64,000 nucleotides of DNA from Thermoanaerobaculia bacterium. Lineage in GTDB: Bacteria; Acidobacteriota; Thermoanaerobaculia; Multivoradales; SZUA-115. Position 1 is the stretch's first letter, and each line of letters starts with the position of its first letter. Made by a program: the position numbers and the translations under genes. This document shows, one piece after another, positions 1 through 40,190 of the stretch. The stretch spans positions 307,202 through 371,201 of the forward strand of contig JAXLQX010000003.1 in the NCBI GenBank assembly GCA_046331405.1. Reading direction: 5' to 3'. The notes under the pieces were generated by a model. That model ran no database searches, was not told the DNA's origin, and saw only the letters and a program-made list of their open reading frames with translations.

Positions 1-46
1 GCTGTGGAGCTGCCACGCTTCGGCTCACCACCCCTACCTGGGAGCC

Positions 47-2806
47 GTGGCCGAGGCTCTGCTCGACCCGAATGAAGGCGACGTGAAGGTAGTGCTGGCC
101 TCCCACGCCGCGCTTCTGGCGAAGCTCACGCCGGAACTGCTCGAGGGCCTGGCTGCCGGCCTCGCCGGCACCGCCGCGGGCGACCTCGAAGGCGCGGCGA
201 CCGAGGCTCGCTGCCGGCTGCCGGAGGGCGAGCCGCAGTGGGCGGCCCTGGCGCTCTACAGCCGCAGCTGGGAGCCGTTTCGAGTGGCGGCCCCGCTCGC
301 CCAGCAGTTGCCGCAGCCCCTGGGGGGGCCTCACACGCCCCGAGTGGAGGGAGCCCCGGCCCAGAGCGCCTACTTCCTGGGCCGGGAGGACGAGGTGAGG
401 CGTGGCCTCGCCCTGTTGCGCGGCCACCGGTTGGTTTCCTTCCTCGGCATGGGGGGTATCGGCAAGAGCGAGCTCGCCCTGGCGGTGGCTCACGAGGCCG
501 TGAGCGGGGCGAAGGCCTTCGTCGAGCGCGCGCTCTGGTTTTCCCTCCAGGGCGACCGCGAGGCCGGGCTGCTGCGCTCCCGCCTGGCCGCCCGCCTGGA
601 GGCGCTGCCGCCCGAGGGGGCGCAAGAGCCGGAGCCCCAGCAGCTGGCCCGGCTGGTTCGGGCCGTAAGCGAGAAACGGCTGCTCCTGGTGCTGGACAAC
701 GCGGAGGACCTGCTGCGGGCGGACCTCCCCGGCCTGCGGCGGCTGCTCGAGGCCCTGCTCACGGACTGCGCCGGAGTGCGCCTGCTGCTCGCCAGCCGGG
801 GCCCGCTGGGGCCGGTGGCCGGCCACGAGGAAGCGGAGCTCGAGCTCGAGCCGCTGCGCCCGCCGCACGATGCCGAGCTCTTCACCGCCGCGGCCGGCCC
901 CCGCCTGCTGGCGGCGGAGCGGGAAAGCCTGGCGCTCGACACGCTGGTGCGAGGCCTGGGTGGCCACCCGCTTTCCCTCTGCCTGATGGCGAGCCAGGTG
1001 GGCCGGGGGCTCGGCCTGGAGGAGCTGGGCAAGGGGCTGAGCCAGGGCGTGAGCCGGATCCAGGGTCACGAGCTCCTGGACCGAACTCTGCCCCCGGACG
1101 AAGCCCCCGCCTACCGCCAGCGCAGCCTGGACGCCTCCCTCTGGCTCTCGTACGGGCCTCTCGCCCAAGCCCGCCCGCAGGCCGCCGAGCTCTTCGCCTG
1201 GCTCGGCACCCTGCCCGCCGGCCTGCCCGTGGCCCTGCTGCCCGAGGTTTTCGGCCCGGGGGCGCTCGAGGCCATGGCCGCCCTGGAGCGTTGCTACCTG
1301 GCCGGAAGGCGAGGCCGGGTGGAGCGCCTGCAGCTGCTCGAGCCCGTGCGCCTCTTCGCCCGGGAGCGGGCTCAGGAGCTGGAAGGGCCAAGGCAGCAGG
1401 AGCTCCTGGCCGGAACTTGCCGGGCCTTCGAGAGCTGGCTCCGCGGTGCTCACACTCTGCTGCGCGAGGGCTCCAACCTCCAGGCCGTGGAGCTCGCCCT
1501 CGCGGAGAAAGCCAACTTACAGAGCGTGATGGAACACGTCAAGGCGCACCCCGAACTGTTGGAAGAGGCTAACTTCAAGCTACTCCTGAGCCAAGCTCAT
1601 TACTTCTGGGAAGCGACCCTCCGCTCTGCCTTGGAGCCTGCGACCATGAGCCGGCCCCCGAAAGAATCCGCGAGCTTGGGGCAGCCGCGCCTAGAAAGGG
1701 CCATGCCGGTTTCGGTGGCAATTCTCACGAGCCTCCCCGAAACAATGGAACGGGAGATTAAGCAAGCGCTCGCGACCTTTCCGCAGTTCGAAGCATTCCC
1801 TCGTGAATCGAACACGAACCGAGTCGCCTCCGAGCTCACCTCGACCGAGTCCTCCCGGGTTGAACCCGACGAGGCTGCGGGGCGGGGCCCAATTGGCGAC
1901 AAGACGTTAGCAACTCTATCTGAAACGGCCTATTTGCATCGGCACCACGGCGACGTCCACCGCTGGAACCATCAGTGGGCCGACGCTATCCTCGCCTACG
2001 ATCAGGCCCTCGCCCTCTACCAACTGAATCAAGATAGTGAAAGCGAAGCCTGCACTCAGAACGACTTGGGAGATCTCTACCTGCGAACCGGCAGGCTCTC
2101 CGAAGCGGCCGCCACATACGATCGGGCCCTCGCCCTGTATCAGCAGATCCACGATCCCCTCGGCGAGGCCAACACCCACAAGGCCCTCGGAGACCTCTTC
2201 CTGCGCACCGATCGACTCGCCGAGGCCGAACGCGCCTACCAACAAGCCCTCGCCCTCTTCCAGCAGATCCACGCTGCCCTCGGCGAGGCCAACACCCTGG
2301 CGGGCCTGGGGCAGCTGGCGTTGGCTCAGGGCTCCCCGGCCCGGGCGTTCGAGCTCTTCCAGCAAGCGCTCGACCGGCAGCGGGGGATCGAAAACCGTCT
2401 GGGCGAGGCCGGCTCCTGGGGCTACCTCGCCCGCAGCGCCCTGGCCGCCGGGCGCCCGGAGCGGGCTGCCGTGCTGGGCGGGCGGGCGCTCGGGATCCTC
2501 GAGGAAGTGCAAAGCGCTTTCGGCCAGACGCTGGCCCTGAGCGACCTCGCTAGCGCCTTCTTCGAGCTGGAGCAGTGGGGGCCCGGCATAGCGGCTCTCT
2601 ATCGGGCCTGGGTGATCGCCGTGCAGATCCAGGACCCTTCTGCCCCCCGGCAAGCGGAGGTTCTCGGCCAGCTCATCGAAGGCTTCGACCCTGCGACCGC
2701 CCCGCCGGAAGCCGCCGAAGCGGCCCGGGAGGCGATTGCGGCAGCTCTCGCGCAGCTGGAGGAGGCGTTGGCGGCGCGGGGGGAGGAGCTGCTCTCGCCG
2801 CTCTAG
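47..2806 (+). CDS. STAND-class P-loop NTPase (NB-ARC-like) with C-terminal TPR repeats; may extend 5' beyond the window
   Basis: Walker A GMGGIGKSELA, Walker B LLLVLDNAEDLL and a GxP-like GGHPLSLCLMA motif, followed by at least six TPR-like repeats (YDQALALYQQ..., LGEAN...). The GTG at 47 has no upstream in-frame stop back to position 2, so the true start may be outside the window. Confidence 0.7.
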   Translation: MAEALLDPNEGDVKVVLASHAALLAKLTPELLEGLAAGLAGTAAGDLEGAATEARCRLPEGEPQWAALALYSRSWEPFRVAAPLAQQLPQPLGGPHTPRVEGAPAQSAYFLGREDEVRRGLALLRGHRLVSFLGMGGIGKSELALAVAHEAVSGAKAFVERALWFSLQGDREAGLLRSRLAARLEALPPEGAQEPEPQQLARLVRAVSEKRLLLVLDNAEDLLRADLPGLRRLLEALLTDCAGVRLLLASRGPLGPVAGHEEAELELEPLRPPHDAELFTAAAGPRLLAAERESLALDTLVRGLGGHPLSLCLMASQVGRGLGLEELGKGLSQGVSRIQGHELLDRTLPPDEAPAYRQRSLDASLWLSYGPLAQARPQAAELFAWLGTLPAGLPVALLPEVFGPGALEAMAALERCYLAGRRGRVERLQLLEPVRLFARERAQELEGPRQQELLAGTCRAFESWLRGAHTLLREGSNLQAVELALAEKANLQSVMEHVKAHPELLEEANFKLLLSQAHYFWEATLRSALEPATMSRPPKESASLGQPRLERAMPVSVAILTSLPETMEREIKQALATFPQFEAFPRESNTNRVASELTSTESSRVEPDEAAGRGPIGDKTLATLSETAYLHRHHGDVHRWNHQWADAILAYDQALALYQLNQDSESEACTQNDLGDLYLRTGRLSEAAATYDRALALYQQIHDPLGEANTHKALGDLFLRTDRLAEAERAYQQALALFQQIHAALGEANTLAGLGQLALAQGSPARAFELFQQALDRQRGIENRLGEAGSWGYLARSALAAGRPERAAVLGGRALGILEEVQSAFGQTLALSDLASAFFELEQWGPGIAALYRAWVIAVQIQDPSAPRQAEVLGQLIEGFDPATAPPEAAEAAREAIAAALAQLEEALAARGEELLSPL

Positions 2807-2818
2807 GGGCCCGGGAGG

Positions 2819-4822
2819 CTAGCCGGGCTTGGCCGCCCCCTCCACCTTGGCCAGGGCCCGAGCCGCGGCAGCCGGGTCCCCCGCGTGCTGGGTGGCATGG
2901 CGGAGCACCCGCAGGGCTTCGGCTTTCTGGCCCAGGGTGAGGAGGGATTCGGCGAGGCCGAGGGCGGCCTGGGTGTGGGCGGGCTCGAGGCCGAGGCAGC
3001 GGCGGTAGGCCTCCACGGCTTCGCTCGGGCGGCCGAGGGCGGCTCGGGCCGAGGCCAGGTAGTACCAGGCGGCGCCCAGATTGGGGCGCTCCTCGATGGC
3101 TTTCTCGAGCAGAGGCAACGCCCGTTCCGGCCGGCCCTCGCCGAGCTCCAGGCGAGCCAGGTTGAAGCGGGCTTCAGGCTGGAAGGGGGCCGGCTGGCCG
3201 GCCTCCGGGGGTCGCAGGGCCTGCTCCAGGGCGGCGCGGGCTTCCGCCCGCCGGTCCTGGCCGGCGAGCGCCGCACCCAGCCAGGCGAGGGCCTGGCGGT
3301 CCCCGGCATCCCGCTTGAGGAGCTCGCGGGCCACGGCCTCGGCTTCGCCGTTGCGGCGGGTGAGGAGCAGGGCCTCGAGGAGGTCCAGGTAGGGGGCCCG
3401 CTGCGGCTGGGGGTGGGCTGCCAGCTGGCGGGCGAGGGCGTCCACCGCCTCCTTCTGGCGGCTGGTGCGGGCCACGGCCAGGGCCCGGTAGAGGGCCGGG
3501 CCGGGCGGGGGCACGGTGGCCGGCTCGAGAGGGAGGGCGTCCACCAGCACCGGGTCCCTTTCGCTCCGGGGAGCCAGGAGGTCCACGCCGGGGGCGGGGG
3601 GGCGCTGAATCTTGTGATCGGTCATCACCACGTGCACCACGTCCTGCGGGCGGCGGCGGGGCATGTGGCAGGAGGCGCAGTCCCCGCCGTCCGGGTGGGC
3701 GGCGGCCTCGGGGCGCTTGCACTGGGCGAGGCTGTGGCAGCCCAGGCAGGCGCTGCGTACTTTGGCGGCGAATTCCTCCGCCGGCGGCTTGCGGTGCGGA
3801 TCGTGGCAGGTCAAGCAGGAGAGCTTGCCGGCGCTTGCCGCGAAGCAGCGGCTCTGGCGCAGGCGGTAGGCGTGGTGGTTGATCTCGAAACGCTCGCCGG
3901 GCGCCACGCCTTCCTCGGTGACGTCCATCCCAACCAGGTAGGAGGAGAGGGCCTCGCCGGGGCGGGAGGAGAAATCCCCGCGCTCGAAGCGCCGCAGCCC
4001 CGGCAGGGCCACCGAGGGCTGGAGGTGGCAAGCGTTGCACACGTCGTCCCGCCGGTCGGGGGCGAGGCGGCCCGGCACCACGATGGCCTGCTTGGCGGCT
4101 TCGGTGTCCGTGCCGCCGGTCACCACCCGGCGCACGTGCTCCGCCCCCGGCCCGTGGCAGCGCTGGCAGCCCAGCCCCTCGGGCAGCTCGTGGGGGAAGA
4201 GCGGCGGCTCGCCGTAGGCATCCGCCCCGGCGGCGAGCTCCGGGTAGGCGTCGTGGCAGAACAGGCATTCGCGGCGCACCCGGCGCATCACGCCCTGATG
4301 GTCCGGGCGGTCGTAGCCGGGAGCCATGCCCCAGCTGCGGCTCTGGCCGTACCAGGCGATCGGCAGCTGGTAGAGCTCGCCGGCGGGGGTCTGGTAGAGG
4401 TAGGTGCGGGCGTGGTTGCCGGAGCCGAGAATCCAGTCCACCGCCACCTCGAAGCGGTGGATCGGCTGGCCCTGGGCGTCCCTCTGGTAGCGGCGGAAGA
4501 TCAGCTTGCCGCCTTCCGCGGCGAGTTCGAAGGTCTGCCCGGAAGGGGCGTGCACCACCCGCGCCGTCGCGAGATCCTCGATCAGCGCGCCGACGTCCGC
4601 CCGGCGGAAGGCGCGGGCCATCGCCACCTGCTGGTAGGAGAGGTAGATCGCCCGGTGACACATGGAGCAGGTGCCGTCCGGCACGTAACCGGGCGCCGCC
4701 CCGGCGCTCACCCGGATGCCCATCGCCGCCAGCGGATCCGCCGGCGGCTCGGCCCGGCCGGCGGCCACCAGGCCGGCCAGGCCGACCAGAGAGAGCCCCC
4801 AGCCGATGTGCGAAGCCTTCAC
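2819..4822 (-). CDS. secreted multihaem c-type cytochrome (7 CxxCH) fused to a C-terminal TPR domain
   Basis: N-terminal signal peptide. CxxCH motifs: CSMCH, CLFCH, CQRCH, CNACH, CLTCH, CLGCH, CASCH. The C-terminal third is TPR-like repeats. Confidence 0.75.
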   Translation of the reverse strand: MKASHIGWGLSLVGLAGLVAAGRAEPPADPLAAMGIRVSAGAAPGYVPDGTCSMCHRAIYLSYQQVAMARAFRRADVGALIEDLATARVVHAPSGQTFELAAEGGKLIFRRYQRDAQGQPIHRFEVAVDWILGSGNHARTYLYQTPAGELYQLPIAWYGQSRSWGMAPGYDRPDHQGVMRRVRRECLFCHDAYPELAAGADAYGEPPLFPHELPEGLGCQRCHGPGAEHVRRVVTGGTDTEAAKQAIVVPGRLAPDRRDDVCNACHLQPSVALPGLRRFERGDFSSRPGEALSSYLVGMDVTEEGVAPGERFEINHHAYRLRQSRCFAASAGKLSCLTCHDPHRKPPAEEFAAKVRSACLGCHSLAQCKRPEAAAHPDGGDCASCHMPRRRPQDVVHVVMTDHKIQRPPAPGVDLLAPRSERDPVLVDALPLEPATVPPPGPALYRALAVARTSRQKEAVDALARQLAAHPQPQRAPYLDLLEALLLTRRNGEAEAVARELLKRDAGDRQALAWLGAALAGQDRRAEARAALEQALRPPEAGQPAPFQPEARFNLARLELGEGRPERALPLLEKAIEERPNLGAAWYYLASARAALGRPSEAVEAYRRCLGLEPAHTQAALGLAESLLTLGQKAEALRVLRHATQHAGDPAAAARALAKVEGAAKPG

Positions 4823-4854
4823 GATGGGGCTACTCTAAGCCAGGAGCCCCGCCC

Positions 4855-6174
4855 TCAGCGCAGCACCTTCACCACGTGGTAGGACTTCTTGCCCCGCCGC
4901 AGCACCACGAAACGCCCGGCGAGCACATCCGCCTCGGCCACCAGGTAGGCCGGGTCGTCGATGCGCCGGTTGTTGAGGTAGACGCCGCCGGAGGCAATCG
5001 CCGTGCGCGCCTGCCCCTTGGACGGCACCAGCTGGCTCGCGGCCAGCAGGCCGGCGAGCGAGGCCTGGGGCGTGCCGAGGGCGGAGGCCGGGAGCTCGGT
5101 GGAGTCCCAGCTGGCGAAGGCCTCGGCCATCTGCTCGGGGGAGAGCTCGGCGAGCTCCCGGCCCTCGAACAGCACCTCGGTGGTGTGCTGGGCGCGGGCG
5201 AGGGCGGTGGCGCCGTGCACCAGGCGGGTCACCTCCGCGGCCAGGCGGTGCTGGGCGGCGCGCTCCTGGGGCTTCTCGGCCACGGCGTGGTCCAGCTCGG
5301 CGAGCTCGGCGAGGGGCAAGAAAGTGAAGTAGCGCAGGTAGCGGCCTGCGTCGGCGTCCGTGGTGTTGAGCCAGAACTGGTAGAACTCGAAGGGGCTGGT
5401 GAGCTCGGCGTCCAGCCACACGTTGCCGGCCTCGGACTTGCCGAACTTGCTGCCATCCGCCCGCGTCACCAGCGGGTTGGTGAGCCCGTAGGCGGTCGCG
5501 CCGCGCAGCCGGCGAATCAAGTCCGTGCCGGCCACGATGTTGCCCCATTGGTCGCTGCCGCCCATCTGCAGCCGGCAGCCGTGGCGGTCGTAGAGCTCGA
5601 GGAAATCGAACGCCTGCAGCAGGGAGTAGCTGAACTCGGTGTAGGAGATGCCCTGCTCGCGGGACTCCAGGCGGTTCTTCACCGAATCCCGCGCCACCAT
5701 GGCGTTCACCGAGAAATGCTTGCCGATGTCGCGCAGGAAGGCCACCAGGTTGAGCGAGCACAGCCAGTCCGCGTTGTTCACCAGCAGGGCGCCGTTCTCG
5801 CCCGAGAAGTCCAGGAACCGCTCCAGCTGGGAGCGGATGCCTTCGAGGTTCTCGGCCAGCTTGGCCTCGGTGAGCATCGGCCGCTCGCTCTGCTTGCCGC
5901 TGGGGTCGCCGATCAACCCCGTGCCCCCGCCCGCGATGGCGATCGGCCGGTGCCCGGCCTGTTGCAGCCGCACCAGCTGGAGGATGGGCAAGAGGCTGCC
6001 CACGTGCAGGCTGGCGGCCGTGGGATCGAAGCCGATGTAGGCGGTGACGCGCTCCCGCAGCATCAACTCGCGAAGCTCCGGATCGGTCACCTGCGAAACC
6101 AGCCCCCGCTCCGTGAGGCCGGCCACGAAATCCACGCTCATGACGCCACTCTCCCAGAAAGTACCCGGCGCCAA
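4855..6174 (-). CDS. tyrS: tyrosine--tRNA ligase
   Basis: HIGH-type motif (AASLHVGSL), KMSKS-type KFGKSEAGNVWL and a C-terminal S4-like domain. Start is TTG at 6174 or the internal ATG at 6141. Confidence 0.9.
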   Translation of the reverse strand: MAPGTFWESGVMSVDFVAGLTERGLVSQVTDPELRELMLRERVTAYIGFDPTAASLHVGSLLPILQLVRLQQAGHRPIAIAGGGTGLIGDPSGKQSERPMLTEAKLAENLEGIRSQLERFLDFSGENGALLVNNADWLCSLNLVAFLRDIGKHFSVNAMVARDSVKNRLESREQGISYTEFSYSLLQAFDFLELYDRHGCRLQMGGSDQWGNIVAGTDLIRRLRGATAYGLTNPLVTRADGSKFGKSEAGNVWLDAELTSPFEFYQFWLNTTDADAGRYLRYFTFLPLAELAELDHAVAEKPQERAAQHRLAAEVTRLVHGATALARAQHTTEVLFEGRELAELSPEQMAEAFASWDSTELPASALGTPQASLAGLLAASQLVPSKGQARTAIASGGVYLNNRRIDDPAYLVAEADVLAGRFVVLRRGKKSYHVVKVLR

Positions 6175-6396
6175 GCCGGCGCCCGCGTGATGCTACCAGG
6201 GCCCAACCCCACAACGCCCCGAGGGGGCCTCGGCCCGGGCGGGCTACGAGGAGCGGAGCCACCCCGAAGGGGTCGAGGGCGAGCACCGCAGGAGCCCGAT
6301 CGGACGAGGCCCTCACCGGCCCAACGCCCCGACCGCCTGATCCACACGGGGTTCGAGCTCGTAAACTCTTGCGAATACTTCCGCCGAGGAGAGCCC

Positions 6397-7503
6397 ATGG
6401 CCTTCTGGATCGCCGCTGCCGTCTGCTTCCTGGCCTTCGCCAACGGAGCCAACGACAACTTCAAGGGAGTCGCCACCCTCTTCGGCAGCGGCACCGCCGG
6501 CTATCGCATCACCCTCGCCTGGGCCACCCTCACCACCGCCGCCGGCTGCCTCCTCGCCCTCTGGCTCGCCCGCGGGCTCGTCGAGGCCTTCAAGGGCAAA
6601 GGCCTCGTGCCCGCCGCCGTCGCCGCCGAACCGCGGTTCCTGCTCGCCGTCAGCCTGGGCGCCGCCGCCACCGTGCTCCTCGCCACCCGCTTCGGCTTCC
6701 CCGTCTCCACCACCCACAGCCTCATCGGTGGCCTGGTAGGCGCCGGCTGGCTCGCCTCCGGGGGGCAAGTGGCCTTCCGCGCCCTCGGCACCGCCTTCCT
6801 GCTCCCCCTGCTCTTGAGCCCGCTGCTCGCCCTCCTCCTCACCCTCAGCCTCTACCCCCTCGTGAGCCGCGCCCGTCGCGCCCTCGGCATCACCCGCGAA
6901 AGCTGCCTCTGCGTGGGCGTCGAAACCTCCGTGCTCGCCCTTGCCCCCGGCGGCGCCGCCTCGGCAGCACCCGTCCTCAGCGTCACCCAGGGCCAACGAA
7001 CCGCGTGCGCCGAGCGCTACCAGGGCCGACTCCTCGGCCTCGACGCCGGCCGACTCCTCGATGCCGTCCACTTCGCCAGCGCCGGCACCGTGGGCTTCGC
7101 CCGCGGCCTCAACGACGCGCCCAAGATCGTGGCCCTCCTGATCGCCGCCGAAGCCCTGAGCCCCAGCCTCGGCCTCCTGGCCGTGGCCGCCGTGATGGCC
7201 CTCGGCGGGCTCCTGAGCGCCCGCCGCGTGGCAGAAACCCTCAGCCGGCGCATCACCACCATGAACGCCGGCCAGGGCGCCACCGCCAACCTGGTCACCA
7301 GCCTCCTCGTGCTCCTCGCCAGCCGCTACAGCTTGCCCGTCTCCACCACCCACGTCTCCGTGGGCGCCCTCTTCGGCATCGGCACCGTCACCGGCACTGC
7401 CCGGCGCGACGTGGTGGTTGCCATCCTCCTCGCCTGGGTCACCACCCTGCCCCTGGCTTGCCTGCTCGCCGCCACGGCCTACCGCCTCCTTCCCCCCGGC
7501 TAG
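6397..7503 (+). CDS. inorganic phosphate transporter, PiT (PHO4) family
   Basis: Duplicated GANDNFKGVATLFGSG / GLNDAPKIVALL motifs and multiple TM helices. ATG at 6397 is in frame with the long track ORF 4876..7503, whose 5' part is antisense to tyrS. Confidence 0.7.
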   Translation: MAFWIAAAVCFLAFANGANDNFKGVATLFGSGTAGYRITLAWATLTTAAGCLLALWLARGLVEAFKGKGLVPAAVAAEPRFLLAVSLGAAATVLLATRFGFPVSTTHSLIGGLVGAGWLASGGQVAFRALGTAFLLPLLLSPLLALLLTLSLYPLVSRARRALGITRESCLCVGVETSVLALAPGGAASAAPVLSVTQGQRTACAERYQGRLLGLDAGRLLDAVHFASAGTVGFARGLNDAPKIVALLIAAEALSPSLGLLAVAAVMALGGLLSARRVAETLSRRITTMNAGQGATANLVTSLLVLLASRYSLPVSTTHVSVGALFGIGTVTGTARRDVVVAILLAWVTTLPLACLLAATAYRLLPPG

Positions 7504-14990: not shown

Positions 14991-16646
14991 TCAGCCTGGC
15001 CGAGTCTTCTCCTCGCTCTCGTCCTCGGCCGGAGGCTCGCTCGGCGAGTCCGGTTCCGGCTCAGGGGGCTCGGGCGGCTCCGGCTCGAGCGGCGGCATGG
15101 CGAAGGTGGGCCCTGGCTCCGGCTGGCTCCAGGCCGGCTGAGGTGGCGCCGGCACCGGCGGCTCGGGTACCACGGGGATGCCCCAGCGGTCGCCTCCGTT
15201 GGGCGGTCCTTCCCCCTTCAGGGGCCCTCGGCGGCCAAAGCGGGTGAGCACCACCGAGCCGAGGCCGAGGGTGAGGGCGACGAAGCGGATCATGCTGCCG
15301 AGCCCCAGGAACATCCAGCCGGGCAGGCGCATGCAACCCGAGGAAACCAGAAGCAGGGCGCCCAGGAGCGTGGTGGCTTCGATCACGGCGAGACCCGCGA
15401 CCAGAGTGCCGAAGCCGGAGGGGATCCGCAGGCCGAAGCGTTCCTTGAGCCACTCGCCGAGCTCCTTGGCCACGCCGGCGTAGCCGAGCAGCAGGGCAGC
15501 CGCGAGAGCGAAGGGCACCACGATCAAGAGCGGCACGATCAGCAGGCAACCGACGATGGTGATCAGCAGGGCGAGGATCACCACGCCGAGGGCCGGCAGG
15601 AACAGGATCCAGACCAGAAGCCCCACCAGGCCGGCCTTCCACCACTCCCGCTCGAGATTGGCCTGAACCCGACTGACAGCCCGCGGTACCGCGAGCCAGA
15701 TGGCCGAGAGCAGGATCGCCGCCAGGCAGAGCTTGAACAGACGCCAGAACAGGGCCCAGAGGTGGCCGCCGGAGCCGAGAAAGGGACCCAAGCCCACCAG
15801 CCAGGCTAGGCCCGGAGCTTCTCCGTGCCGGCCCATGGCGCCGAGCGGCACTTCCGTCTGCGAGCCCTGCACCTCCGAGCCGGCTGCCCGCTCCACCCGG
15901 CCGCCGACCGCGGTGACGCCGTTGCCCACGCGGGCATGGGGCCCGAGCTCCACTCCGCCGTAGACCGAGGTCACCTCGCCGCCCACGGTGCCTTCCACCC
16001 GCACCCGGCCGAAGACCGCCAGGGCGTCCCGGCGGACCTCGCCGAGCACCGTCACGTCGCCGAAGACGGCGGTGGCGGCGCTCGCGGTCTCGTCCGGCCC
16101 GATCTCGAGATCGTCGAAGATGGTGAATTGATCCCCCACCCGGCGCAGCCTGGTGGGCGCCTCGGGTGCAGGAGTCTCCTCGGGCTCGGCGGGAGTCGAA
16201 GCTTCGGGAGTTTCGGCCGCCCCGCTCGGAGGGCTCGGCGGCGGAGGCGGAATGGGGGCCGATGGCGCGGCGGTCGGGGGCAGGGAGACGAGATCCCGCG
16301 CATCGAAGCCGAAGAGCTTGCGCTGCTCGGCCGCCGGCAGCTTCGAAAGCTGCAGCACGGGCGCTGCGGCGGCGCCGATCCACTGCACCAGCACGCCTTC
16401 GGGAACCTTCGCGCCATTGACGCGAATCTCGGCGCCGGCCACCGCGATGTTGTCGACCCCCGGTTGCGCGGCGCGGAACTTCAACGTCACGCCGCCCGAG
16501 GAGGGCTCGACCTGGAATTGCCTCTCGAGGTCCGCTCGGAGGGTGGATGGAGGCTGGGTCCAGGCCGGAGAAAGAAAGACGAAAAGCGCCGCGGCAGCGA
16601 GCAGCAGAGCCCGAGCCGCGGGCAGGGATCTTCTAGAGTCGAGCAT
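14991..16646 (-). CDS. secreted/membrane protein with Pro-rich linker, bactofilin-like beta-helical repeat region and multi-TM C-terminal domain
   Basis: Signal peptide, then a PPPPSPP linker, then repetitive G-V-x-V-x-G segments (FGDVTVLGEVRRDALAVFGRVRVEGTVGGEVTSVYGGVELG), about 6 TM helices and a Pro/Glu-rich tail. Overlaps the upstream anti-sigma gene by 14 nt. Confidence 0.5.
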   Translation of the reverse strand: MLDSRRSLPAARALLLAAAALFVFLSPAWTQPPSTLRADLERQFQVEPSSGGVTLKFRAAQPGVDNIAVAGAEIRVNGAKVPEGVLVQWIGAAAAPVLQLSKLPAAEQRKLFGFDARDLVSLPPTAAPSAPIPPPPPSPPSGAAETPEASTPAEPEETPAPEAPTRLRRVGDQFTIFDDLEIGPDETASAATAVFGDVTVLGEVRRDALAVFGRVRVEGTVGGEVTSVYGGVELGPHARVGNGVTAVGGRVERAAGSEVQGSQTEVPLGAMGRHGEAPGLAWLVGLGPFLGSGGHLWALFWRLFKLCLAAILLSAIWLAVPRAVSRVQANLEREWWKAGLVGLLVWILFLPALGVVILALLITIVGCLLIVPLLIVVPFALAAALLLGYAGVAKELGEWLKERFGLRIPSGFGTLVAGLAVIEATTLLGALLLVSSGCMRLPGWMFLGLGSMIRFVALTLGLGSVVLTRFGRRGPLKGEGPPNGGDRWGIPVVPEPPVPAPPQPAWSQPEPGPTFAMPPLEPEPPEPPEPEPDSPSEPPAEDESEEKTRPG

Positions 16647-17217
16647 GGGTCTGTCTCCTCGGCCCGTAAACCGACTGCGCAGCGACTCGCAAGAGGAAAG
16701 CGCCGAGGGCGAGAGCGACCGTCGCTCCGCCGGCCGCCACGGGAGTGTTGACCAGCCCAGCCAGGCCGGCGACTACGCCATCCAGCCGTTGACCCCAGAT
16801 CAGCGTTTCCGTCAAGCCGGCCGTGGCAGAACGGACCATCTCGGCCAGCACGGCCATCAAGCCGGCCCAGCCGAAGTCGGCCCAGCCGAGCTTCTCGGCG
16901 AGCCCCGGCAGAGTGGCAGCGATCGCCACCGAGCCGAGCGCCAGCGCCAGCACAGCCGCCGCCGAGAGCCAGCGCAGCCAGCTCGGGGCGCGGCGCCTCT
17001 CGGCTTGCCGCGCGCCGGCCGAGAGCGCCTGCCACCGCTCGGCGGTGCGTGCGGCGAAACCCTCGGGCACGGGCAGAACCGGGCTCTGGGCGAAGAGCGC
17101 CGAGAGGGCGCTTTCGGCCATCTCGTCCGCACCGACCTGCTCGGCGGCGAGCCAGGCTTCGAGCTCGCGGTCGAAGGCCGTCGGCTCGGTGCGCGATGGG
17201 TTGCGGCGCTCTTCCAC
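16633..17217 (-). CDS. putative anti-sigma factor (single-pass membrane protein)
   Basis: Immediately downstream of the ECF sigma gene. Cytoplasmic N-terminal helix region, one TM helix (WLRWLSAAAVLALALGSVAIAA), periplasmic C-terminus. Confidence 0.5.
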   Translation of the reverse strand: MEERRNPSRTEPTAFDRELEAWLAAEQVGADEMAESALSALFAQSPVLPVPEGFAARTAERWQALSAGARQAERRRAPSWLRWLSAAAVLALALGSVAIAATLPGLAEKLGWADFGWAGLMAVLAEMVRSATAGLTETLIWGQRLDGVVAGLAGLVNTPVAAGGATVALALGAFLLRVAAQSVYGPRRQTHARL

Positions 17218-17265
17218 GGGTTGTTGTCTCCTCTCGAGACCGGTCGCTGCCGGGCTCGCCCTGCC

Positions 17266-17877
17266 CTACGGCGAGTCTCCGCGTTCGGTTTCGCCGCTCG
17301 GCCGATAACCGCGCCGGCGCATCCCCGCCGCCAGCTCCTTGCGGGCCCGGTGGATGTAGGTCTTGACGGTGCCCAGGGGGAGCGACATCACTTCGGCGAT
17401 CTCTTCGTAGGCCAGCCCTTCTTGGAAGCGTAGCACGATGACTTCGCGGTACTCGGGCCGCACTTCGGCGAGGGCGCCCTCGAGCTCACGGCCCAGATCG
17501 CGGTTCTCGGCGTCCGCTTCCGGGGTCGCGGCGCTCTCGTCCTCGAGCCGCTCCGCCCGGCTCGTCTCGCCTTCCTCGCTGCTGTCGAGCGAAACCGTCT
17601 GGCGCAGCTTCTGCTGGCGCAGGGCGTCGAGCGCGGTGTTGTGGGCGATCTTGAACAGCCAGCTCGAGAAGCGGTGTTCGGGCTCGAAGCGGGAGAGCGC
17701 CGAGAAGGCCTTGAGGAAAGCCTCCTGGGCGATGTCCTCGGCGAGGCTCGGGTCCTTGACCATGCGGACGATCAAGCTCCACACCGGTCGCTGGAAGCGC
17801 TCCACCAGCGCCCGGTAGGCGAGCTCCTCGCCCTCGAGCGCTCGCCTTACGAGCTCTGAGTCTGCGAGCTCTCGCAC
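17266..17877 (-). CDS. ECF-family RNA polymerase sigma factor
   Basis: Sigma-70 region 2 (VWSLIVRMVKDPSLAEDIAQEAFLKAF) and region 4 (LAYEEIAEVMSLPLGTVKTYIHRARKEL). GTG start preceded by GGAGG. Confidence 0.85.
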   Translation of the reverse strand: MRELADSELVRRALEGEELAYRALVERFQRPVWSLIVRMVKDPSLAEDIAQEAFLKAFSALSRFEPEHRFSSWLFKIAHNTALDALRQQKLRQTVSLDSSEEGETSRAERLEDESAATPEADAENRDLGRELEGALAEVRPEYREVIVLRFQEGLAYEEIAEVMSLPLGTVKTYIHRARKELAAGMRRRGYRPSGETERGDSP

Positions 17878-17903
17878 GATTCTCCTCGGCCTCGGGCGTC
17901 TGG

Positions 17904-17928
17904 TACGCCGGGGCCGCTCGGGGGTTTC
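17904..17928 (-). promoter_or_regulatory. candidate ECF-type autoregulatory promoter (GAAAC-N16-CGTA)
   Basis: On the minus strand, GAAAC then 16 nt then CGTA, about 25 nt upstream of the sigma factor GTG. Resembles the ECF -35 GGAAC / -10 CGT consensus. Confidence 0.25.
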
Positions 17929-18175
17929 AGGTCGGCCGCCGCCCTCGCTCCTCGAAGGCTCGCAGCCGCGCCGTGGCTCGAAGATCCGAATACCGCTGCT
18001 ACACTACCGCTACTCTACCGACGGGCGACCACGGCCGAGCGAGGGTTGGAAGGCCCCTTGACAGGATGGGCGAGGGCTCGACGGGCCGGGCGCTGCTCTC
18101 CCGGGTCCACGAGCGCCTTCGCCCCCTCCTTCGTGCCGCTGGCGGCCCCGAGGATCTCGTATGGAGACGAAAGAC

Positions 18176-24237: not shown

Positions 24238-24960
24238 TCAGCTCGCCACGACCACCTTGGTATCGGCGATGTAGTCGTGCAGGCAGCGCCGCGGCTCGCT
24301 GAAGATCCACAGCGCGTCAACCAGACCCCAGACCGAGCCGAAGAAGGGGATGAAGCCGGGTAGCGCGCTGACCACCATGCGCAGCCAGAAGATCCGGCCG
24401 AGCGAAGCCTTGCTGCCGTCGAGCCGGACAATCTTGATCTTGCAGTAGCGCTTGCCGAGAGTCTGCCCGTTGGAGGCGAGCAGGCTGAGGTTGTAGATGA
24501 GAAGGCCCAGCATGGCCACGGCGGCCAACGCCGCCAGGACGATGAATCCGACTCCGGGATCCTGCCTCTTGGCCGAGGCCGCCAGCAGGATGAAGCCGGG
24601 GATTAGGAAGATCATCATCGCGCCGACGTAGATCAGCCCGTCGAGGAGGATGGCCACCAGGCGAGTGCCGCGTTCGGCCTGAACCTGCTCGCCGCCGAAG
24701 GGCATGTCCGCCACCCGGGCCGTGGGGGCTCGATAGGGGTTGAACGGCTCACCGCGCAGGGTGGCGAGGTCGGCGGCGATCTCCTCCGGAGTTCGGCCAT
24801 CCGCTGCGCCCGGGAAGGCCCCCGGAGGCGGCGGTGGCGGCGGCTCGTCGGGATCCGCCGGCCGAGCTCGGTAGCGAGCGAAGATGACGCCGCAGGCGGG
24901 GCATTCCTGAATTCCCGCCTCGACCGCAAACCCACACTTCGGACAGCTTGTGACCTCCAT
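24238..24960 (-). CDS. RDD-family membrane protein with N-terminal zinc-ribbon
   Basis: CPKCG...CPACG zinc ribbon, Pro-rich linker, RDD domain TM helices (RLVAILLDGLIYVG...). Confidence 0.6.
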   Translation of the reverse strand: MEVTSCPKCGFAVEAGIQECPACGVIFARYRARPADPDEPPPPPPPGAFPGAADGRTPEEIAADLATLRGEPFNPYRAPTARVADMPFGGEQVQAERGTRLVAILLDGLIYVGAMMIFLIPGFILLAASAKRQDPGVGFIVLAALAAVAMLGLLIYNLSLLASNGQTLGKRYCKIKIVRLDGSKASLGRIFWLRMVVSALPGFIPFFGSVWGLVDALWIFSEPRRCLHDYIADTKVVVAS

Positions 24961-25122
24961 GGCTCCTCCTCGACGCCAAGAGCGGCCGCCGGGCTCGCCG
25001 TGGGCGGGCCCGGATGGCAACTCGATTCAAGCTCGTATTCTCGCGGCTATCGTATCAGTGCTCGCGGAAGTTACGGCGCGTTCGAGCGCTCGATTCCCTC
25101 ACGCAGCGGAATCCCCTGCGCT

Positions 25123-26423
25123 TCAGAGCAGGCCGCCGGCCTTGATGTCGAGATAGCGGTTCACCATGGCGATCGGCAGCCGCTCCGGCTCCACGTCCAG
25201 GGTGAGCACGCCGTGGCCGCGCAACTCTTCGTGGGCCCGCTCGCGGGCCGCGAGGTAGTGGTGACAGGCGGCCACCGCCAGGGCATCCGCCGGCCCGGCG
25301 ATCGGCCGCGTGATCGCCTCGGCCAGAGCCCGCTCGCGCAGGCTCGCCACCAGCACCAGATGCCGCTGGGAGAGCAGGCGGAGGGCCGGCAGCAGCTCGC
25401 CGGCGTCTTCGTCGCGAAGGTTCGAGACCAGGATCACCAGGGCGCGGCGGCGCTCCAGAGAGGCTACCCGCAGGGCGGCCGCCAGGTAGTCCGGTGGCTC
25501 GGAGGAAGTCTCGAGATCGTAGACCGCCGCCAGGATCTGCGACACCGCAGCCGGCCCGCGCCGGGGCGCCAGCCACTTCTCGCTGCCGCCGAAGGTGGCC
25601 AGGCCCACGGCATCGCCGTAGCGAGTGGCGGCATAAGCGAGCAGCAGCACGGCGTTCAGGGCGTGGTCGAAGTGCGCGATGTCACCCTCTTTCGAGCGCA
25701 TCCGCCGGCCGCAGTCCACCAGGAGCAGGATGCGCTGGTCGCTCTCATCCTGGAAGTCGCGCACGATCAGCTTGAGGCGCCGCGAAGTGGCCTTCCAGTC
25801 GATCTGCCGCAGGGTGTCGCCCTGGCGGAAGTCCCGCAGCTCGTGGAACTCCCGGCCCTCGCCCCGGCGCTGGCGGCGGCGAATGCCCATGCGGCCCAAG
25901 CGGTCTTCCACGGCGAGAGCCGCGAAGCCCAGCAGCGGCCGGAAGTTCGGCAGCACCCGCACCGCCTCCTCGCCGCCCACGAACAGGCGTCGCTGCCAGA
26001 GCTTGAGCGGCGACCGCAGCAGGGCTTCGGTCTTGCCGAACCTCGCCTGCCCGCGCTCGCAGGGCCGCACCTGATACTCGAAGGAAGCCCCTCCTCCGGC
26101 CGGCACCAGCAGCCGAAAAGGCAGGCCCTGAACCTCCCAGCCGGTGGGGTGGTGGTCGAAAACGTCGAGATCGAGCGCCGAGCGCCCGCGCGCCAGGAAG
26201 GAAAGGCGAACCCGGCTTCGCACTCCCAGGGGGAGAGAGCCCGGAACCTCGCGCCGGGTCTCCGGCACGGCAGCCCGGCGCACCGCCAGGCCATCCGCCA
26301 GGGCCAGGGCGAGCGAGCCCGCCGCGACGGCGATCCACAGCCCCTGGGCCGCGGGCACGAACGCCGCGAGCCCGCCCAGAGCCAGTCCGACCCCGAGCAG
26401 CCCGAGGGCTCGGCGAGTCGGCC

Positions 26424-26427
<4 letters not shown>
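25123..26427 (-). CDS. DUF58 family protein (vWA-like, MoxR-associated)
   Basis: Two N-terminal TM helices plus a DUF58 core (ILLLVDCGRRM..., vWA-like). ATGA overlap with MoxR. Confidence 0.75.
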
Positions 26428-27421
<994 letters not shown>

Positions 27422-27425
<4 letters not shown>

Positions 27426-28645
27426 AGCGCCCTCCGCACTTCTTCGATGGTCTGAATCATCCTGCTCAAGCCTTCCGGGTCGTCGGGAGCGGGCGAGCTC
27501 ATCGCCCATTCGAGGGTCTCGGGTGGCACTCCGGTCTGGCTCGCCCAGAGCTCGAATTGTCGCCTCCCGGGTGTGCCGCCTCCCTCGGGCAGGCGAGCGG
27601 CGGCGTGCCGCCTGAGCGCCCGGCGAGTGCTCTCGAGCAGCGCGCGGGTCTGGCGACGGCGGCGGAGGAACTCCGCGCTCGCGCCGATGTGCTCGAGGAG
27701 GCTGCGGCGGGCAAGCGGCGGGTCTGGCAGCAGGGGGCCGAAGCGGGGGCCGTTCTTGGCCAGCCAGGCCGCCACCAGGAGCCCGCCCGAGACGAGGGCC
27801 ATCCAGCCGTAGCGGCCGATCAAGCCGAACAGCGAGGGGTAGTCGAGCGCCCGCACCAGGGTCACCCCGAGCGGCGCCGGCTCCCTCTCCACCGCCGCCA
27901 GCAAGAGAGCGGCGTGATCCTCCTCGGCCAGCTCGTCGTTGGTGAGCCAGTCGGTCTCGGTCAGGAGCGCGATCGAGCCCTCGCCCAGGGTGAAACGCAG
28001 CATCACGCCTTGCGAGTCGTCGGTCTCTCCGGCCAGGCGCCAGGTCTCGACCAGCCGAGGCTGGTCGCGGGGCGCCACCCTCACCGTGGGCGAGGCGTCC
28101 TCCTCCGGCTCGCAGGAATCGCAGTCCTCGGGCTCCTCTGGCTCGGGCTCGGAGCTCTTGACGAACTGCAGGCGGTCCCGCCGGTGCAGCTGGACCGCGA
28201 ACGGCGGCTCGTCTCGGCGGACCTCGATCGGCGTCGGCGGCCAGCCCTTCTCGGGAGGTTTCTCGGACTCGGGATCAACCACCACGCCCAGAGCCGAGAA
28301 CAAGCTCTTCTGAGGTGCCGCCAGCACCCGGCCGCCCTGGTGTACCCAGGTCAGGAGTCGGGCGGTCTGGTCCCCCGGCGGCAGACTCTCCGGCCGGAGC
28401 AGCACGAGCAGATGCCCGGCCGGTGGCAGCGGCTCGAGGCGGACCGAACTCTTGGCCGGCACGCCCTGGGCGGTGAGGAATCGCGCCGCGGCGAGGTAGG
28501 CATCCTGCCTCGCTTCGGCGCTCGGGCCCTGGTCCACCTCGATCTCGGCACGTTCGAAGCACACCAAGAAGAGAGCCACCAGGAGGGCCGAGAGGATACC
28601 GGCACCCCAGGACAGCCAGGAGCTCCCACTCGCCCCGCCGCTCAT
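27422..28645 (-). CDS. DUF4350-like protein (membrane-anchored, MoxR operon member)
   Basis: N-terminal TM helix. Operon position matches the conserved DUF4350 slot. ATGA overlap with the DUF4129 stop. Confidence 0.5.
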
Positions 28646-30156
28646 CCCCCACCTCCGAAGCTCTGGCTCCAGGCTTCGCAGAGCGAGATCACCTCGACGC
28701 CGGCCGGGGCGCGATGGGCATAGGCGGCGTCCTGCCAGGTGCGCACCAGCCGCGACAGCAGCTCCGAGCCAGCCCCGGGCACCCGGCTGCGGAGCTCGCG
28801 CAGGCACTCGCTCTCCGTCCAGCTCGGGAGGATCTCGAGCCTCTGGCGGCGAACCAGCACGGCCAGCGCTCCGCGGTACAGCAACGACAGAGCCTCCACC
28901 ACCCTCCCCTCTTCCGCCAGCCGGCGTGCCTCTCCCGGCACGTCGCGGGGCAAAGGCCGCTCGGTCAGCTCAGCGAGCCAGGAGCTCACTCCGGGAGTGA
29001 ACTCGGGCTGCGGCACGGCCTCGGACAGGGCCGGGTCCCCCCGCCGCCGCCAGGCCGACAACACCAGCCAGGCGAGAGTGAGGCCACCGGAGATCCAGAG
29101 CAGCCACTCGAGAAGCGGCCCCAGCCAGGGGAGATCGAGCCCCACCCGCGCTCGGCCGCGGCCGGGCTTGCCGAAGAGGCCCTCGCGGGGCACCCAGGTG
29201 CGCACTTTCTCCTTGTGGTGGAAGTCCGGCCCGTCGGCGATTTCCTTGGCCTTGTCCTGGGCGGCTTGCCGGCTGGGAGTGGAGGCTGTGGGGGGCGGTT
29301 CCTCCGCCCGGCAAGGGGCGGCCAGGGGCCCGGCCAGAAGCAGCGCGAGCAGCAAGCCAGCGGCAGCCTTGCCGGCGCGCGAGGCGCTTCGCCGGTTCTC
29401 CCGGGCCAGCCGCCGGGCCAGTCGCCGGAAGGCGAGCTCGATGTCCCAGCCCTCGAGCGAGGTCCGACGGTTGAGATAGAGGGTGAAGCCGGCCGCCACG
29501 TAGAAGGGCTCGACGACCGAGACCGCCACGAACCAGAGCAGCCCCAGCAGCAGCTCGAACCACGACGGCGTGGGCCCCGAGAACGGGCCGGCGGCCGAGC
29601 CTAGCCAATCGGGCAGCCGCTCCTGAGGCACCAGGAGCAGGGCGAGACTCAAGAGCGCCAGCAACAGCAGGCTCTCCATCATCGAGCAAGCGAAAGTGAG
29701 CGCGGTGGCCTGGCCGCCGCTCGCCCGGCGCAGCACCCGCAGGCGCCTCCAGCGTGCCGCGCCGCCCAGGTCCTCCAGCACCCGCACGGGCAAGTCGAAC
29801 GAGCGAGCCGGATCGAGCCTTTCGAGGAAGAACAGATAGGCCGGAGCCACCTTGAGCAGCAGCCGGGGGAAAGCCGCGAGAGTCTCCTGCGGCGTGGGCG
29901 TAGAGCCGAAGAGGGCCCGGCTCACCACGAAAAGAGGCAGCACGTCCCAGGCCGGCTTCAGCCAGGCAAGCACCAGGAAGCCCCAGCCGGGGTTGTGCCG
30001 AAAGGCCACCAGGACGGCCACCCACACCGGTAGCACCACCGCCAGCCAGGGCAGGTAGATGGCCCGCGCCCAGGCCCGCACCAGCGGCAGCCCGAGGTCG
30101 ATCGCCTCCCAGGCGAGCCGTGGGCGCACTTCCACGGTCACTCGCTCAAGATCCAC
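28642..30156 (-). CDS. DUF4129-like membrane protein (MoxR operon member)
   Basis: Multiple TM helices, then a soluble C-terminal domain. Operon position matches the conserved DUF4129 slot. Confidence 0.5.
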   Translation of the reverse strand: MDLERVTVEVRPRLAWEAIDLGLPLVRAWARAIYLPWLAVVLPVWVAVLVAFRHNPGWGFLVLAWLKPAWDVLPLFVVSRALFGSTPTPQETLAAFPRLLLKVAPAYLFFLERLDPARSFDLPVRVLEDLGGAARWRRLRVLRRASGGQATALTFACSMMESLLLLALLSLALLLVPQERLPDWLGSAAGPFSGPTPSWFELLLGLLWFVAVSVVEPFYVAAGFTLYLNRRTSLEGWDIELAFRRLARRLARENRRSASRAGKAAAGLLLALLLAGPLAAPCRAEEPPPTASTPSRQAAQDKAKEIADGPDFHHKEKVRTWVPREGLFGKPGRGRARVGLDLPWLGPLLEWLLWISGGLTLAWLVLSAWRRRGDPALSEAVPQPEFTPGVSSWLAELTERPLPRDVPGEARRLAEEGRVVEALSLLYRGALAVLVRRQRLEILPSWTESECLRELRSRVPGAGSELLSRLVRTWQDAAYAHRAPAGVEVISLCEAWSQSFGGGG

Positions 30157-31117
30157 GCAACCTCCCCGCCAGGCTGAAGTAGGCGATCACCAGACCCCAG
30201 CAAAGCGCGCCGGCGCCGAGCCTCAGGGGTGTGGGGAAGCCGGAATTCGAAGACCAGAACGCCTCGAGGAAGGCTGCCACCAGGAGCATCGCGATCACCC
30301 CGTAGATCAGCGGCAAGGCCACCCGCGCTTCCTCGTAGAGCGCCCGCGCCCGGCTGCGTTGCCCGGGCGAGAGCAAGGCGAGGCCCAGGCGCAGCCCGGC
30401 GAGCCCGGAGATCACGATCGCCGTGAGCTCGAAGGCGCCGTGGGCCACCACGAACGAGAAGAAGGCTTCCGAGTGGCCGAAGTTGCCCACGTGGCCGGCC
30501 GCCGCGCCGAACATCAGGCCGTTGTAGACCAGGAAGAAGATCGCGCCCAGGCCGCAGATCAACCCCGAAGCGAAGGTCCGGAAGGAGACCGAGATGTTGT
30601 TGTAGATGTAGTAGCCGAACATGTAGACGTCGAGCTTGGAGGCGCGCTCCTTCTGGCCCTCGGGCGAGTACATGTGCTCGAACGACGCCGCTTCCTCCGG
30701 CCCGAGGAACGAATAGGCGAGCTCTGGCTGGGCGTGCACCAGGACCAACGAGAGCAGCGCCGGCAGGTAGAGCAGGCCGGCCGCCAACCAGAACAGGCGC
30801 AGCTCCCGGCGCAGGGCCCGCGGGAAGGTGGAGGCGAAGAATTCCGCGAGGCCGGAGCGAGTGATGGGGCTCGGCGCCAGGTAGAGCTGCTGATGACCGC
30901 GCAAGGCCAGGCGGTTGAGTCGCTCCTCGAGCTCGACACCGTAGCGACGGGCTCGGGCCAAGGCCAGATGGTGGCAGATCTCGCGATAAAGCTCCGGAAA
31001 ACCGTCCAGCTTGAGGCCGGTCTTGATTCCGGAGCTCTGGCCCTCGAGGTGCTCGAGCATCCTCTCGAAGGCTGCCCAGGCCGAGCCGTACTGGCGCTCG
31101 AAGAGCTCGCGGTTCAT
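30146..31117 (-). CDS. SpoIIM/DUF95-like integral membrane protein
   Basis: Cytoplasmic N-terminal domain plus 5-6 TM helices (FASGLICGLGAIFFLVYNGLMFGAAAGH). ATGA overlap with the RDD gene. Confidence 0.55.
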   Translation of the reverse strand: MNRELFERQYGSAWAAFERMLEHLEGQSSGIKTGLKLDGFPELYREICHHLALARARRYGVELEERLNRLALRGHQQLYLAPSPITRSGLAEFFASTFPRALRRELRLFWLAAGLLYLPALLSLVLVHAQPELAYSFLGPEEAASFEHMYSPEGQKERASKLDVYMFGYYIYNNISVSFRTFASGLICGLGAIFFLVYNGLMFGAAAGHVGNFGHSEAFFSFVVAHGAFELTAIVISGLAGLRLGLALLSPGQRSRARALYEEARVALPLIYGVIAMLLVAAFLEAFWSSNSGFPTPLRLGAGALCWGLVIAYFSLAGRLRGS

Positions 31118-31797
31118 TCCCGCCGCCCCACCAGCCAGTTGGCCAGGGCCACCAGCCGAACCACCGCGAGGTCCCCCCGAGCTCCCACCAAGGGCGCCGC
31201 CAGGGAGGCCAGCTCATCCGCCCGCTCCGAGGACCAGCTGGGCAGCCTCTGGGCGAACTCCACCACGGCCCGTTGCTCCTCCCGGCCGAGCGCCACGGGG
31301 GGCGGAGCCGGCGCCGCCGCCGGCAGGTTGCGGGGCCCCTGTTCTTCCCGGGTGTAGACCACCACCGTGCCAGCCACCAGGTCGCCGAGCCGGCGGAAGT
31401 CGCGGGTCAGGAACATGGTGATCAGCCCGAAGCCGTAGCCCACCGGCAGGAAATCCGCGAAGCGCAGCAGATTGCGCATCACCGAGGCCGTCCAGGAAAC
31501 CGGCGTGCCATCCACCGAGAGCACCGCGATGCCCATCAAGCGCTTGCCAGGCGTGGCCCCCTTGACCAGCACCTCGAAGAACACCGGGTAGAACCACTCC
31601 CCCAGGAAGAAAAGAATCAGGAGCAAACCCAGCCCGACCTCGCCCAGCGTGGCGAGAGGGATCGCCAGGGCCCAGAGCAGCACGGTGCGGATGGCGACGT
31701 CCGTGCCGTAGGCGAGCAGGCGCACCGGCGGCCCGGCCATGCGCAGGCCCAGCTCCACTCCTTCGGGCGTCTCGACGGTGCGGTAGGTGTCCAGCAT
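31114..31797 (-). CDS. RDD-family membrane protein
   Basis: RDD domain (YGTDVAIRTVLLWALAI...GATPGKRLMGIAV). First gene of the six-gene operon. Confidence 0.7.
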   Translation of the reverse strand: MLDTYRTVETPEGVELGLRMAGPPVRLLAYGTDVAIRTVLLWALAIPLATLGEVGLGLLLILFFLGEWFYPVFFEVLVKGATPGKRLMGIAVLSVDGTPVSWTASVMRNLLRFADFLPVGYGFGLITMFLTRDFRRLGDLVAGTVVVYTREEQGPRNLPAAAPAPPPVALGREEQRAVVEFAQRLPSWSSERADELASLAAPLVGARGDLAVVRLVALANWLVGRRE

Positions 31798-39802: not shown

Positions 39803-39876
39803 GGCTGGTCACCTCGGACCGTCTGCGCTCCGAACCCGGGCGAGGGGGCGCGGGCAGCGGCTCTCTCGCCCGGCGT

Positions 39877-40110: not shown

Positions 40111-40115
40111 GGCGT

Positions 40116-40147: not shown

Positions 40148-40190
40148 ACTAGGCGTCAAGTCCTGTTCGTCCTCGCCTGCCGAGCCCTGC

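Follow-up and report, generated by a model that had tools for sequence, protein, structure and literature searches.

The locus examined here raises a simple question: why does a near-identical stretch of DNA occur twice, in the same orientation and roughly 57 kb apart, in two intergenic regions of the window, the 64,000-nt stretch that we analysed from the genome of an uncultured Thermoanaerobaculia bacterium? The answer that we favour, to which we give a probability of about one half, is that the element is a lineage-private, non-coding, small palindromic interspersed repeat that works like the repeats of the REP/MITE type. The first copy of its 46-nt conserved core, ACGAGGAGCGGAGCCACCCCGAAGGGGTCGAGGGCGAGCACCGCAG, matches exactly at positions 6246-6291 (+ strand). 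The second, recognised by sequence match, lies at 63583-63628 (+ strand) and carries a single mismatch, a G where copy 1 has A6285. A first-pass annotation of this DNA, made from the sequence alone, had reported a near-identical 46-mer present twice on the same strand with one mismatch, and we found the same repeat; it was matched in 0 of 100 dinucleotide-preserving shuffles of the window. That annotation had, however, placed copy 2 at 63593-63638, with a start that is 10 nt off: position 63638 is the end of a longer similarity rather than of the 46-mer. The apical hairpin that it had described, ACCCC-GAA-GGGGT, is present within the core of copy 1 (6261-6273, + strand), and so is the direct repeat, with CGAGGAGCGGAGC (6247-6259) on one side of the hairpin and CGAGGGCGAGC (6274-6284), which reads CGAGG-GCG-AGC, on the other, both on the + strand. 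In copy 2, the apical loop GAA falls at 63603-63605 (+ strand).

When the flanks were aligned, as the first-pass annotation had proposed, the similarity extended past the 46-mer to a block of about 63 nt with 92% identity, at 6239-6301 in copy 1 and 63576-63638 in copy 2 (both + strand). By blastn the copies are 96% identical over 53 nt, and the central 39 nt of the core are perfectly conserved between them. Beyond the 63-nt block, the intergenic DNA around copy 1 cannot be aligned with that around copy 2. A shared 53-63-nt block in otherwise unrelated surroundings is the pattern left by a unit copied recently, not by an old conserved motif. Searches of the 64-kb window with short-word blastn, nhmmer and an unfiltered covariance model revealed no third copy, weak and partial matches included.

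A repeat of this kind could be an artefact of assembly, a possibility that had been raised when the element was first noticed. Contigs from independent assemblies, L001 and L015 (GCA_035441885.1) and L014 (ENA ERZ773282), between them reproduce the two copies at 100% identity. The tyrS-PiT spacer, element included, is identical on a 1.9-kb contig (L001, GCA_035441885.1), and the kinase-M64 spacer is identical both on an 8.5-kb contig (L014, ERZ773282) and on L015 (GCA_035441885.1). Because both copies recur in independent assemblies, with three assemblies of the same Thermoanaerobaculia population concordant base for base, an assembly artefact is ruled out.

Both copies lie between divergently transcribed genes, and here gene starts and domain annotation bear out the settings first proposed, tyrS(-)/PiT(+) and histidine kinase(-)/M64(+). 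Copy 1 has tyrS on its left (start codon ATG at 6141, - strand) and a gene for a PHO4/PiT phosphate transporter on its right (ATG at 6397, + strand). Copy 2 has on its left a gene for a HisKA/HATPase_c kinase with an OmpR-type regulator (TTG at 63502, - strand), and on its right a gene for a secreted M64_N/Peptidase_M64 protein (ATG at 63706, + strand). The GAA loop is 124 and 128 nt from the two start codons in copy 1 and 100 nt from each in copy 2, which places it 2 nt and 0 nt, respectively, from the midpoint between the start codons. Under a uniform model such placement has a probability of about 2e-4 to 1e-3, a statistic that was formulated post hoc. The simplest explanation would be selection, in that only the centre of these 140-190-nt divergent regions may tolerate an insert, because compact divergent regions must fit two promoters and two leaders. 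The tyrS side also carries a terminator-like hairpin, CCGGCTTGGCGCCGG, with a T-rich tail after it (6165-6179, - strand); it sits about 25 nt upstream of the tyrS start and thus likely in the 5' leader. Rfam finds no T-box at this leader hairpin, which could be an uncharacterised attenuator or a mere leader hairpin.

In both copies, a single long, imperfect hairpin (83-92 nt) carries the conserved core at its tip. The complete hairpin of copy 1 is a 92-nt imperfect palindrome (6223-6314) whose interrupted stem of about 22 bp ends in the outer arms GGGGCCTCG and CGAGGCCCT, which are specific to this copy; the inner arms that it shares with copy 2 are GCGGGC (6239-6244) and GCCCG (6294-6298), within 6239-6301. 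The complete hairpin of copy 2 spans 83 nt (63565-63647) and has a perfect 11-bp basal stem formed by GCGGAGCGGGC (63571-63581) and GCCCGCTCCGC (63631-63641), with GGAT/ATCC outside it. Thus the inner 6 bp of the basal stem (GCGGGC/GCCCG(C)) are alone common to the two copies, and the outer arms differ; at position +/-9 of the common register, copy 2 has a G-C pair and copy 1 a C-G pair.

To score the pairing of the DNA just outside 6245-6293 and 63582-63630, we used an anchored flank-stem test. The flank stem of copy 1 reached -39.2 kcal/mol, a value attained at none of 3000 random positions, and that of copy 2 reached -36.6 kcal/mol, attained at 2 of 3000; the null for the same geometry was -14.5 +/- 5.6 kcal/mol. 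The core's own internal pairing is weak and interrupted. Folded as single-stranded DNA over its exact span, each copy forms one rod-like hairpin on either strand, with only 0-2 of 200 shuffles as stable: copy 1 folds at -30.9 kcal/mol with z = -3.5 (+ strand) and -3.2 (- strand), and copy 2 gives z = -3.0 (+ strand) and -4.3 (- strand). RNA folds of the whole 131-nt region gave unremarkable z-scores; significance is confined to folds of the exact hairpin spans and to the anchored flank test. In an unbiased scan of this GC-rich window for rod hairpins, copy 1 ranked 12th and copy 2 fell outside the top 25. As hairpins of comparable stability occur elsewhere in the window, what distinguishes the element is its identity between copies, its flank stem and its position, not raw stability. 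We also considered a background family of 'empty' GCGGGC...GCCCGC palindromes and rejected it: such palindromes are not enriched in the window and occur at the rate expected by chance (4 observed, 2.8 expected).

Further repeats border the hairpins. That of copy 1 is bracketed by a direct repeat, with GGCCCAAC[CCCACAAC]GCCCCGA (8-nt gap) on the left at 6200-6222 and GGCCCAACGCCCCGA on the right at 6318-6332 (both + strand); a gapped repeat of any such kind is present in 1.1% of Markov-simulated intergenic regions. The bracketing repeat resembles a target duplication; the unit that it encloses, however, exceeds what copy 1 has in common with copy 2. On the 5' side of copy 2, the flank CCAGGATCAGCGGAGC (63562-63577, + strand) directly duplicates, with 13 of 16 positions matching, the 5' end of the element itself, CCACGAGGAGCGGAGC (63581-63596).

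A stable hairpin whose apical part is conserved and whose basal stem varies, situated 100-128 nt upstream of four start codons, would suit a structured RNA transcribed from one strand, either a pair of paralogous sRNAs or a common 5'-UTR cis-regulator. We regard this as quite improbable. Both strands fold equally well, which points to a palindrome in the DNA and not a strand-specific RNA. Comparison with Rfam, another proposal of the first-pass annotation, matched no family: there were no hits at the gathering threshold across the whole window, and at E<=10 the two intergenic regions returned only eukaryotic lncRNA/miRNA noise. With no Rfam match, a known RNA family is rejected. A sigma-70 promoter scan of both intergenic regions found no sites, and no terminator or promoter-like signal tied to the element was found in them. 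The -10-like boxes that we could recognise by eye are on the gene-proximal sides of the hairpin, which would therefore fall outside the transcripts. Moreover, an old functional RNA shows the reverse of this pattern, in which the paralogues are near-identical and conservation in relatives is zero.

The core could instead be a remnant of coding DNA, left by duplication of a gene fragment or by an in-frame insert resembling an RPE. In one stop-free frame of the minus strand, 9 of the 12 A/T bases of the 46-mer occupy codon position 2 (p ~0.01), and the flanks have no such periodicity. The statistic is weak and post hoc, however. The corresponding peptide, A(V/A)LALDPFGVAPLLVAR, occurs in no protein among 5.8 billion clusters, which largely rejects the idea of a coding fragment, and none of the genes in the window contains a further copy at the nucleotide level. 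A coding origin is thus very hard to credit.

We then consider where else the element occurs. A 22-nt core had no match in the GTDB representative genomes, a collection without the source species, so that the result applies to other genomes only: the best M64 match there is 67% identical, which places the source species outside the collection, and the zero count therefore carries no information on the remainder of the source genome. With a 20-nt core, JGI metagenomes gave 7 matches, all confined to the 20-mer itself and thus attributable to chance, and viral contigs gave none; plasmids and phages, searched by blastn in its distant mode, gave no match. We also fetched 95 loci (1.4 Mb); 80 of these are M64 loci from Acidobacteriota, and the closest relatives are represented by their TyrS loci. 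Blastn, nhmmer and covariance-model searches of these loci returned nothing beyond the known copies; the best other hit of a covariance model built from the two copies scored 26 bits (E ~0.4) and lay inside a coding region. The first-pass annotation had proposed checking whether copies always precede particular gene classes; neither the 80 M64 orthologues nor those of TyrS that we examined have the element upstream. The near-identity of the two copies and their absence from the other genomes searched together point to a recently copied, lineage-private repeat, not to an old RNA or operator.

The TyrS protein encoded beside copy 1 is 100% identical to that of a Thermoanaerobaculia bacterium MAG, and the next relatives are at most 75% identical. 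In the closest of these (L002, L003 and L006, with TyrS 72-75% identical), a co-directional diacylglycerol-kinase-like gene precedes tyrS with almost no spacer; in the window (4855-7503), unlike in those loci, tyrS is divergent from PiT across 255 nt. Likewise, a kinase/regulator adjoins M64 in 0 of the 80 M64 loci. Since relatives have neither the tyrS-PiT nor the kinase-M64 adjacency, both copies stand at junctions unseen in the sampled relatives, and for the same reason an orthologous empty-site comparison is impossible.

The mid-intergenic placement also means that a regulatory role at the level of DNA keeps some plausibility. In this alternative the element would be a positioned regulatory module that co-ordinates the tyrS/PiT and kinase-regulator/M64 gene pairs, acting as a cruciform under negative supercoiling between divergent promoters or bound by a protein, for example the adjacent OmpR-family regulator. 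Besides the loops that lie 2 nt and 0 nt from the start-codon midpoints, several features agree with it: a 39-nt core that is perfectly conserved above a basal stem that pairs through different sequence, with the one G-C to C-G exchange at +/-9; GCG(G)AGC direct repeats inside the element; and the proximity of one copy to a two-component system and of the other to a phosphate transporter. On the other hand, 39-53 nt of contiguous identity far exceeds what an operator requires. The repeats inside the element are spaced by about 27 nt, which misfits a phasing of 10-11 nt, the usual one for OmpR/PhoB sites. Nothing comparable lies upstream of the 80 M64 orthologues or the TyrS orthologues, none of the window's other divergent intergenic regions has at its centre a hairpin that ranks with the top rods, and the midpoint statistic is both post hoc and open to the simple selective account given above. 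We therefore consider such a module unlikely. The shared regulator-binding site put forward in the first-pass annotation fares accordingly: the mid-intergenic placement speaks for it, and the excess length of identity and the absence upstream of M64 and TyrS orthologues speak against it, so that it is weakly supported at best. A bolder version, to which we give somewhat less credence still, sees in the hairpin a positioned piece of DNA architecture instead of selfish DNA: a sequence-specific cruciform or protein-binding module set precisely at the midpoints of divergent promoter pairs. The negative supercoiling that back-to-back transcription creates would there be absorbed or sensed by the hairpin, which would couple the expression of both genes; its basal stem could vary freely provided that it still paired, and its tip of about 40 nt would be held constant.

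We return to the reading that we prefer, a recently copied palindromic repeat private to this lineage. In outline, a short inverted repeat (GCGGGC...GCCCGC) closes a conserved core of about 50 nt, which would have been copied from one site to the other fairly recently, whether transposed by an enzyme that acts in trans from another locus or spread through templated repair or gene conversion. Each copy would form the tip of a long DNA hairpin for having landed in, or created, locally self-complementary DNA. Copies may then have survived at the midpoint of divergent regions as the sole spot where an insert of 50-70 nt spares both promoters. Two copies in one arbitrary 64-kb window would be likelier in a genome that contains many; from their presence we infer a family of multiple copies or else local copying. 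Against the repeat reading stands the fact that just two copies are known, both within the 64-kb window.

REP and MITE elements are the closest known kind, because the element is palindromic, non-coding and intergenic, and its lineage-private distribution is typical of REP/MITE families. The first-pass annotation had suggested a REP/MITE-like repetitive extragenic element, and of that suggestion the general part holds: this is a near-identical, non-coding hairpin repeat at two unlinked intergenic sites. The formal definitions of REPs and MITEs, however, do not describe it. Membership in either class is not established on account of the element's length, tag, location and short inverted repeat, and of the lack of a target-site duplication and of a transposase in the window.

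REPs are 20-40 bp long, carry a GTAG/CGTC tag at one end, lie mostly downstream of genes, between convergent or co-directional ORFs, and reach high copy numbers, often as inverted dimers or clusters; REP/REPIN elements are mobilised by RAYT tyrosine transposases (PMC3733652). Like these, our element is short, GC-rich, non-coding, imperfectly palindromic, intergenic and lineage-specific. Some REPs are embedded in larger 'target' palindromes, as are GTAG-23 of T. roseum, GTAG-15 of A. variabilis and CGTC-1 of H. neapolitanus (PMC3733652); similarly, the core described here is nested in a longer palindrome whose arms lie outside the repeat unit. The differences are as clear. The conserved unit is 46-63 nt long, not 20-40 bp, and belongs to a hairpin of 83-92 nt; the two copies seen in 64 kb are single, without the dimers or clusters of REP/REPIN elements; and both copies lie between divergent genes, not in convergent or co-directional spacers. 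As to the tag, the minus strand of copy 1 reads ...CTCGTAGCCC, with GTAG by the stem, and that of copy 2 reads ...CTCGTGGCCC, with GTGG, so that the motif is not conserved, and there is no CGTC. Nor did the sizeable ORFs of the 64-kb window include a cognate RAYT (Y1/HUH).

MITEs, for their part, measure 70-300 bp and have TIRs of 15-30 bp and a target-site duplication (PMC3733652). Like the bacterial MITEs Correia/NEMIS, ERIC, RUP and Nezha, the element is a small repeat of non-autonomous type with terminal complementarity and a rod-like hairpin, and like them it lies close to promoters, where by analogy it could alter the expression of its neighbours. It differs in that its shared inverted repeat has 5-6 bp (11 bp in copy 2 only) instead of 15-30, in that neither copy has a direct repeat (TSD) at the borders of the shared unit, and in having no known parent IS. 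A third comparison is with the TIR repeat families of TIRYT (RAYT-like) transposases, which occur in Acidobacteria and other groups, some of them carrying GGGGWSAS; TIRYT-associated repeats are moderately abundant and partly self-complementary, and are thought to be mobilised by an HUH/Y1 transposase (PMC3733652). Judged by their published description, these families share a phylum with our element, which has on its minus strand GGGGTGGC, corresponding to 7 of the 8 positions of GGGGWSAS. It departs from them in that it matches GGGGWSAS only inexactly and the window contains no TIRYT gene.

The rarity of the element also fits a humbler history, in which a patch of about 50-60 nt was copied once to a site 57 kb away, without mobility, function or family. 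Such a patch could stem from template switching, from gene conversion, or from filler-DNA repair where a fragile palindrome had broken at its centre. Just two copies were found in all the data searched, the window holds no mobility gene, and the shared unit has no target-site duplication. If only two copies exist, random placement in a genome of several Mb would put them within 57 kb of each other in only about 2-3% of cases, which would favour a local event. Palindrome centres are break-prone positions, and both sites are palindrome centres. A single chance duplication leaves unexplained, however, why the same patch sits at a palindrome centre and at a divergent midpoint at both sites; we hold it to be a serious alternative that is nonetheless unlikely.

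What the repeat means depends on how many copies there are. A multi-copy family would be the first REP/MITE-like repeat described in the poorly studied class Thermoanaerobaculia, would serve as a marker for strain typing and rearrangement breakpoints, and would offer a lead to the mobilising transposase, Acidobacteria having a distinct TIRYT clade. If only two copies exist, the element is a minor genomic curiosity. It is probably an otherwise ordinary, private example of a familiar class of bacterial repeat, with a mildly intriguing placement in the middle of promoter regions. That exact mid-promoter placement is the one feature that could lift it above a curiosity, as it presents a testable case of either strong selection on tolerated inserts or a regulatory hairpin that depends on supercoiling or on a protein.

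Two direct repeats in the same orientation about 57 kb apart could also be the attL and attR sites that bound an integrated element or genomic island. The content of the interval rules this out, and we give the idea almost no credence. Between the copies lie genes for PiT, glycosyltransferases, RecD2, an ECF sigma factor, purH, LolA and a MoxR/DUF58 cluster, and further genes for NAD synthase, EpmB/EF-P/EpmA, a TonB receptor, pyrR-pyrB-pyrC, SMC and two VapBC pairs; this is core chromosome with housekeeping genes. Pfam scans of all sizeable ORFs of the window detected no integrase, transposase (Y1_Tnp and RAYT/TIRYT included), phage or conjugation gene. GC content is uniform across the window at about 70%, and no tRNA was found in it.

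Several other features of the window deserve mention. At its left edge, a gene at 2-2806 (+ strand), which runs past that edge, encodes a STAND NTPase (NB-ARC/NACHT-like) fused to TPR repeats; three 120-nt tandem repeats within it (1980-2282) correspond to successive TPR units. Directly downstream of tyrS, the gene at 2819-4834 (- strand) encodes a protein that combines multihaem cytochrome c motifs (Paired_CXXCH, cytochrome c7/c3) with C-terminal TPR repeats. Two ORFs of about 590 and 210 codons at 14991-17265 (- strand) have coding-like GC3 and no Pfam match; they lie immediately downstream of the ECF sigma factor gene (17266-18003) and may encode its anti-sigma or effector partners. A long run of co-directional genes at 24238-31812 (- strand) encodes RDD, DUF58, MoxR AAA_3 ATPase, DUF4350, DUF4129, SpoIIM-like and RDD proteins, a conserved-looking, membrane-associated MoxR system. 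Two VapBC-type pairs, one of an RHH antitoxin with a PIN toxin and one of a VapB-like antitoxin with a PIN toxin, lie at 39353-40155 and 60145-60800 (both - strand). At 41706-44480, an EpmB-like radical-SAM gene (-) is divergent from the gene for EF-P (+), which is followed by one for an EpmA-like class II tRNA-synthetase paralogue (+). Finally, a gene for an AAA_21/AbiEii-type ATPase with AAA_15 and an SMC_N-like N-terminus (51088-52287, - strand) sits in one of the window's patches of lower GC (0.66 versus 0.70) and is possibly part of a small defence locus.
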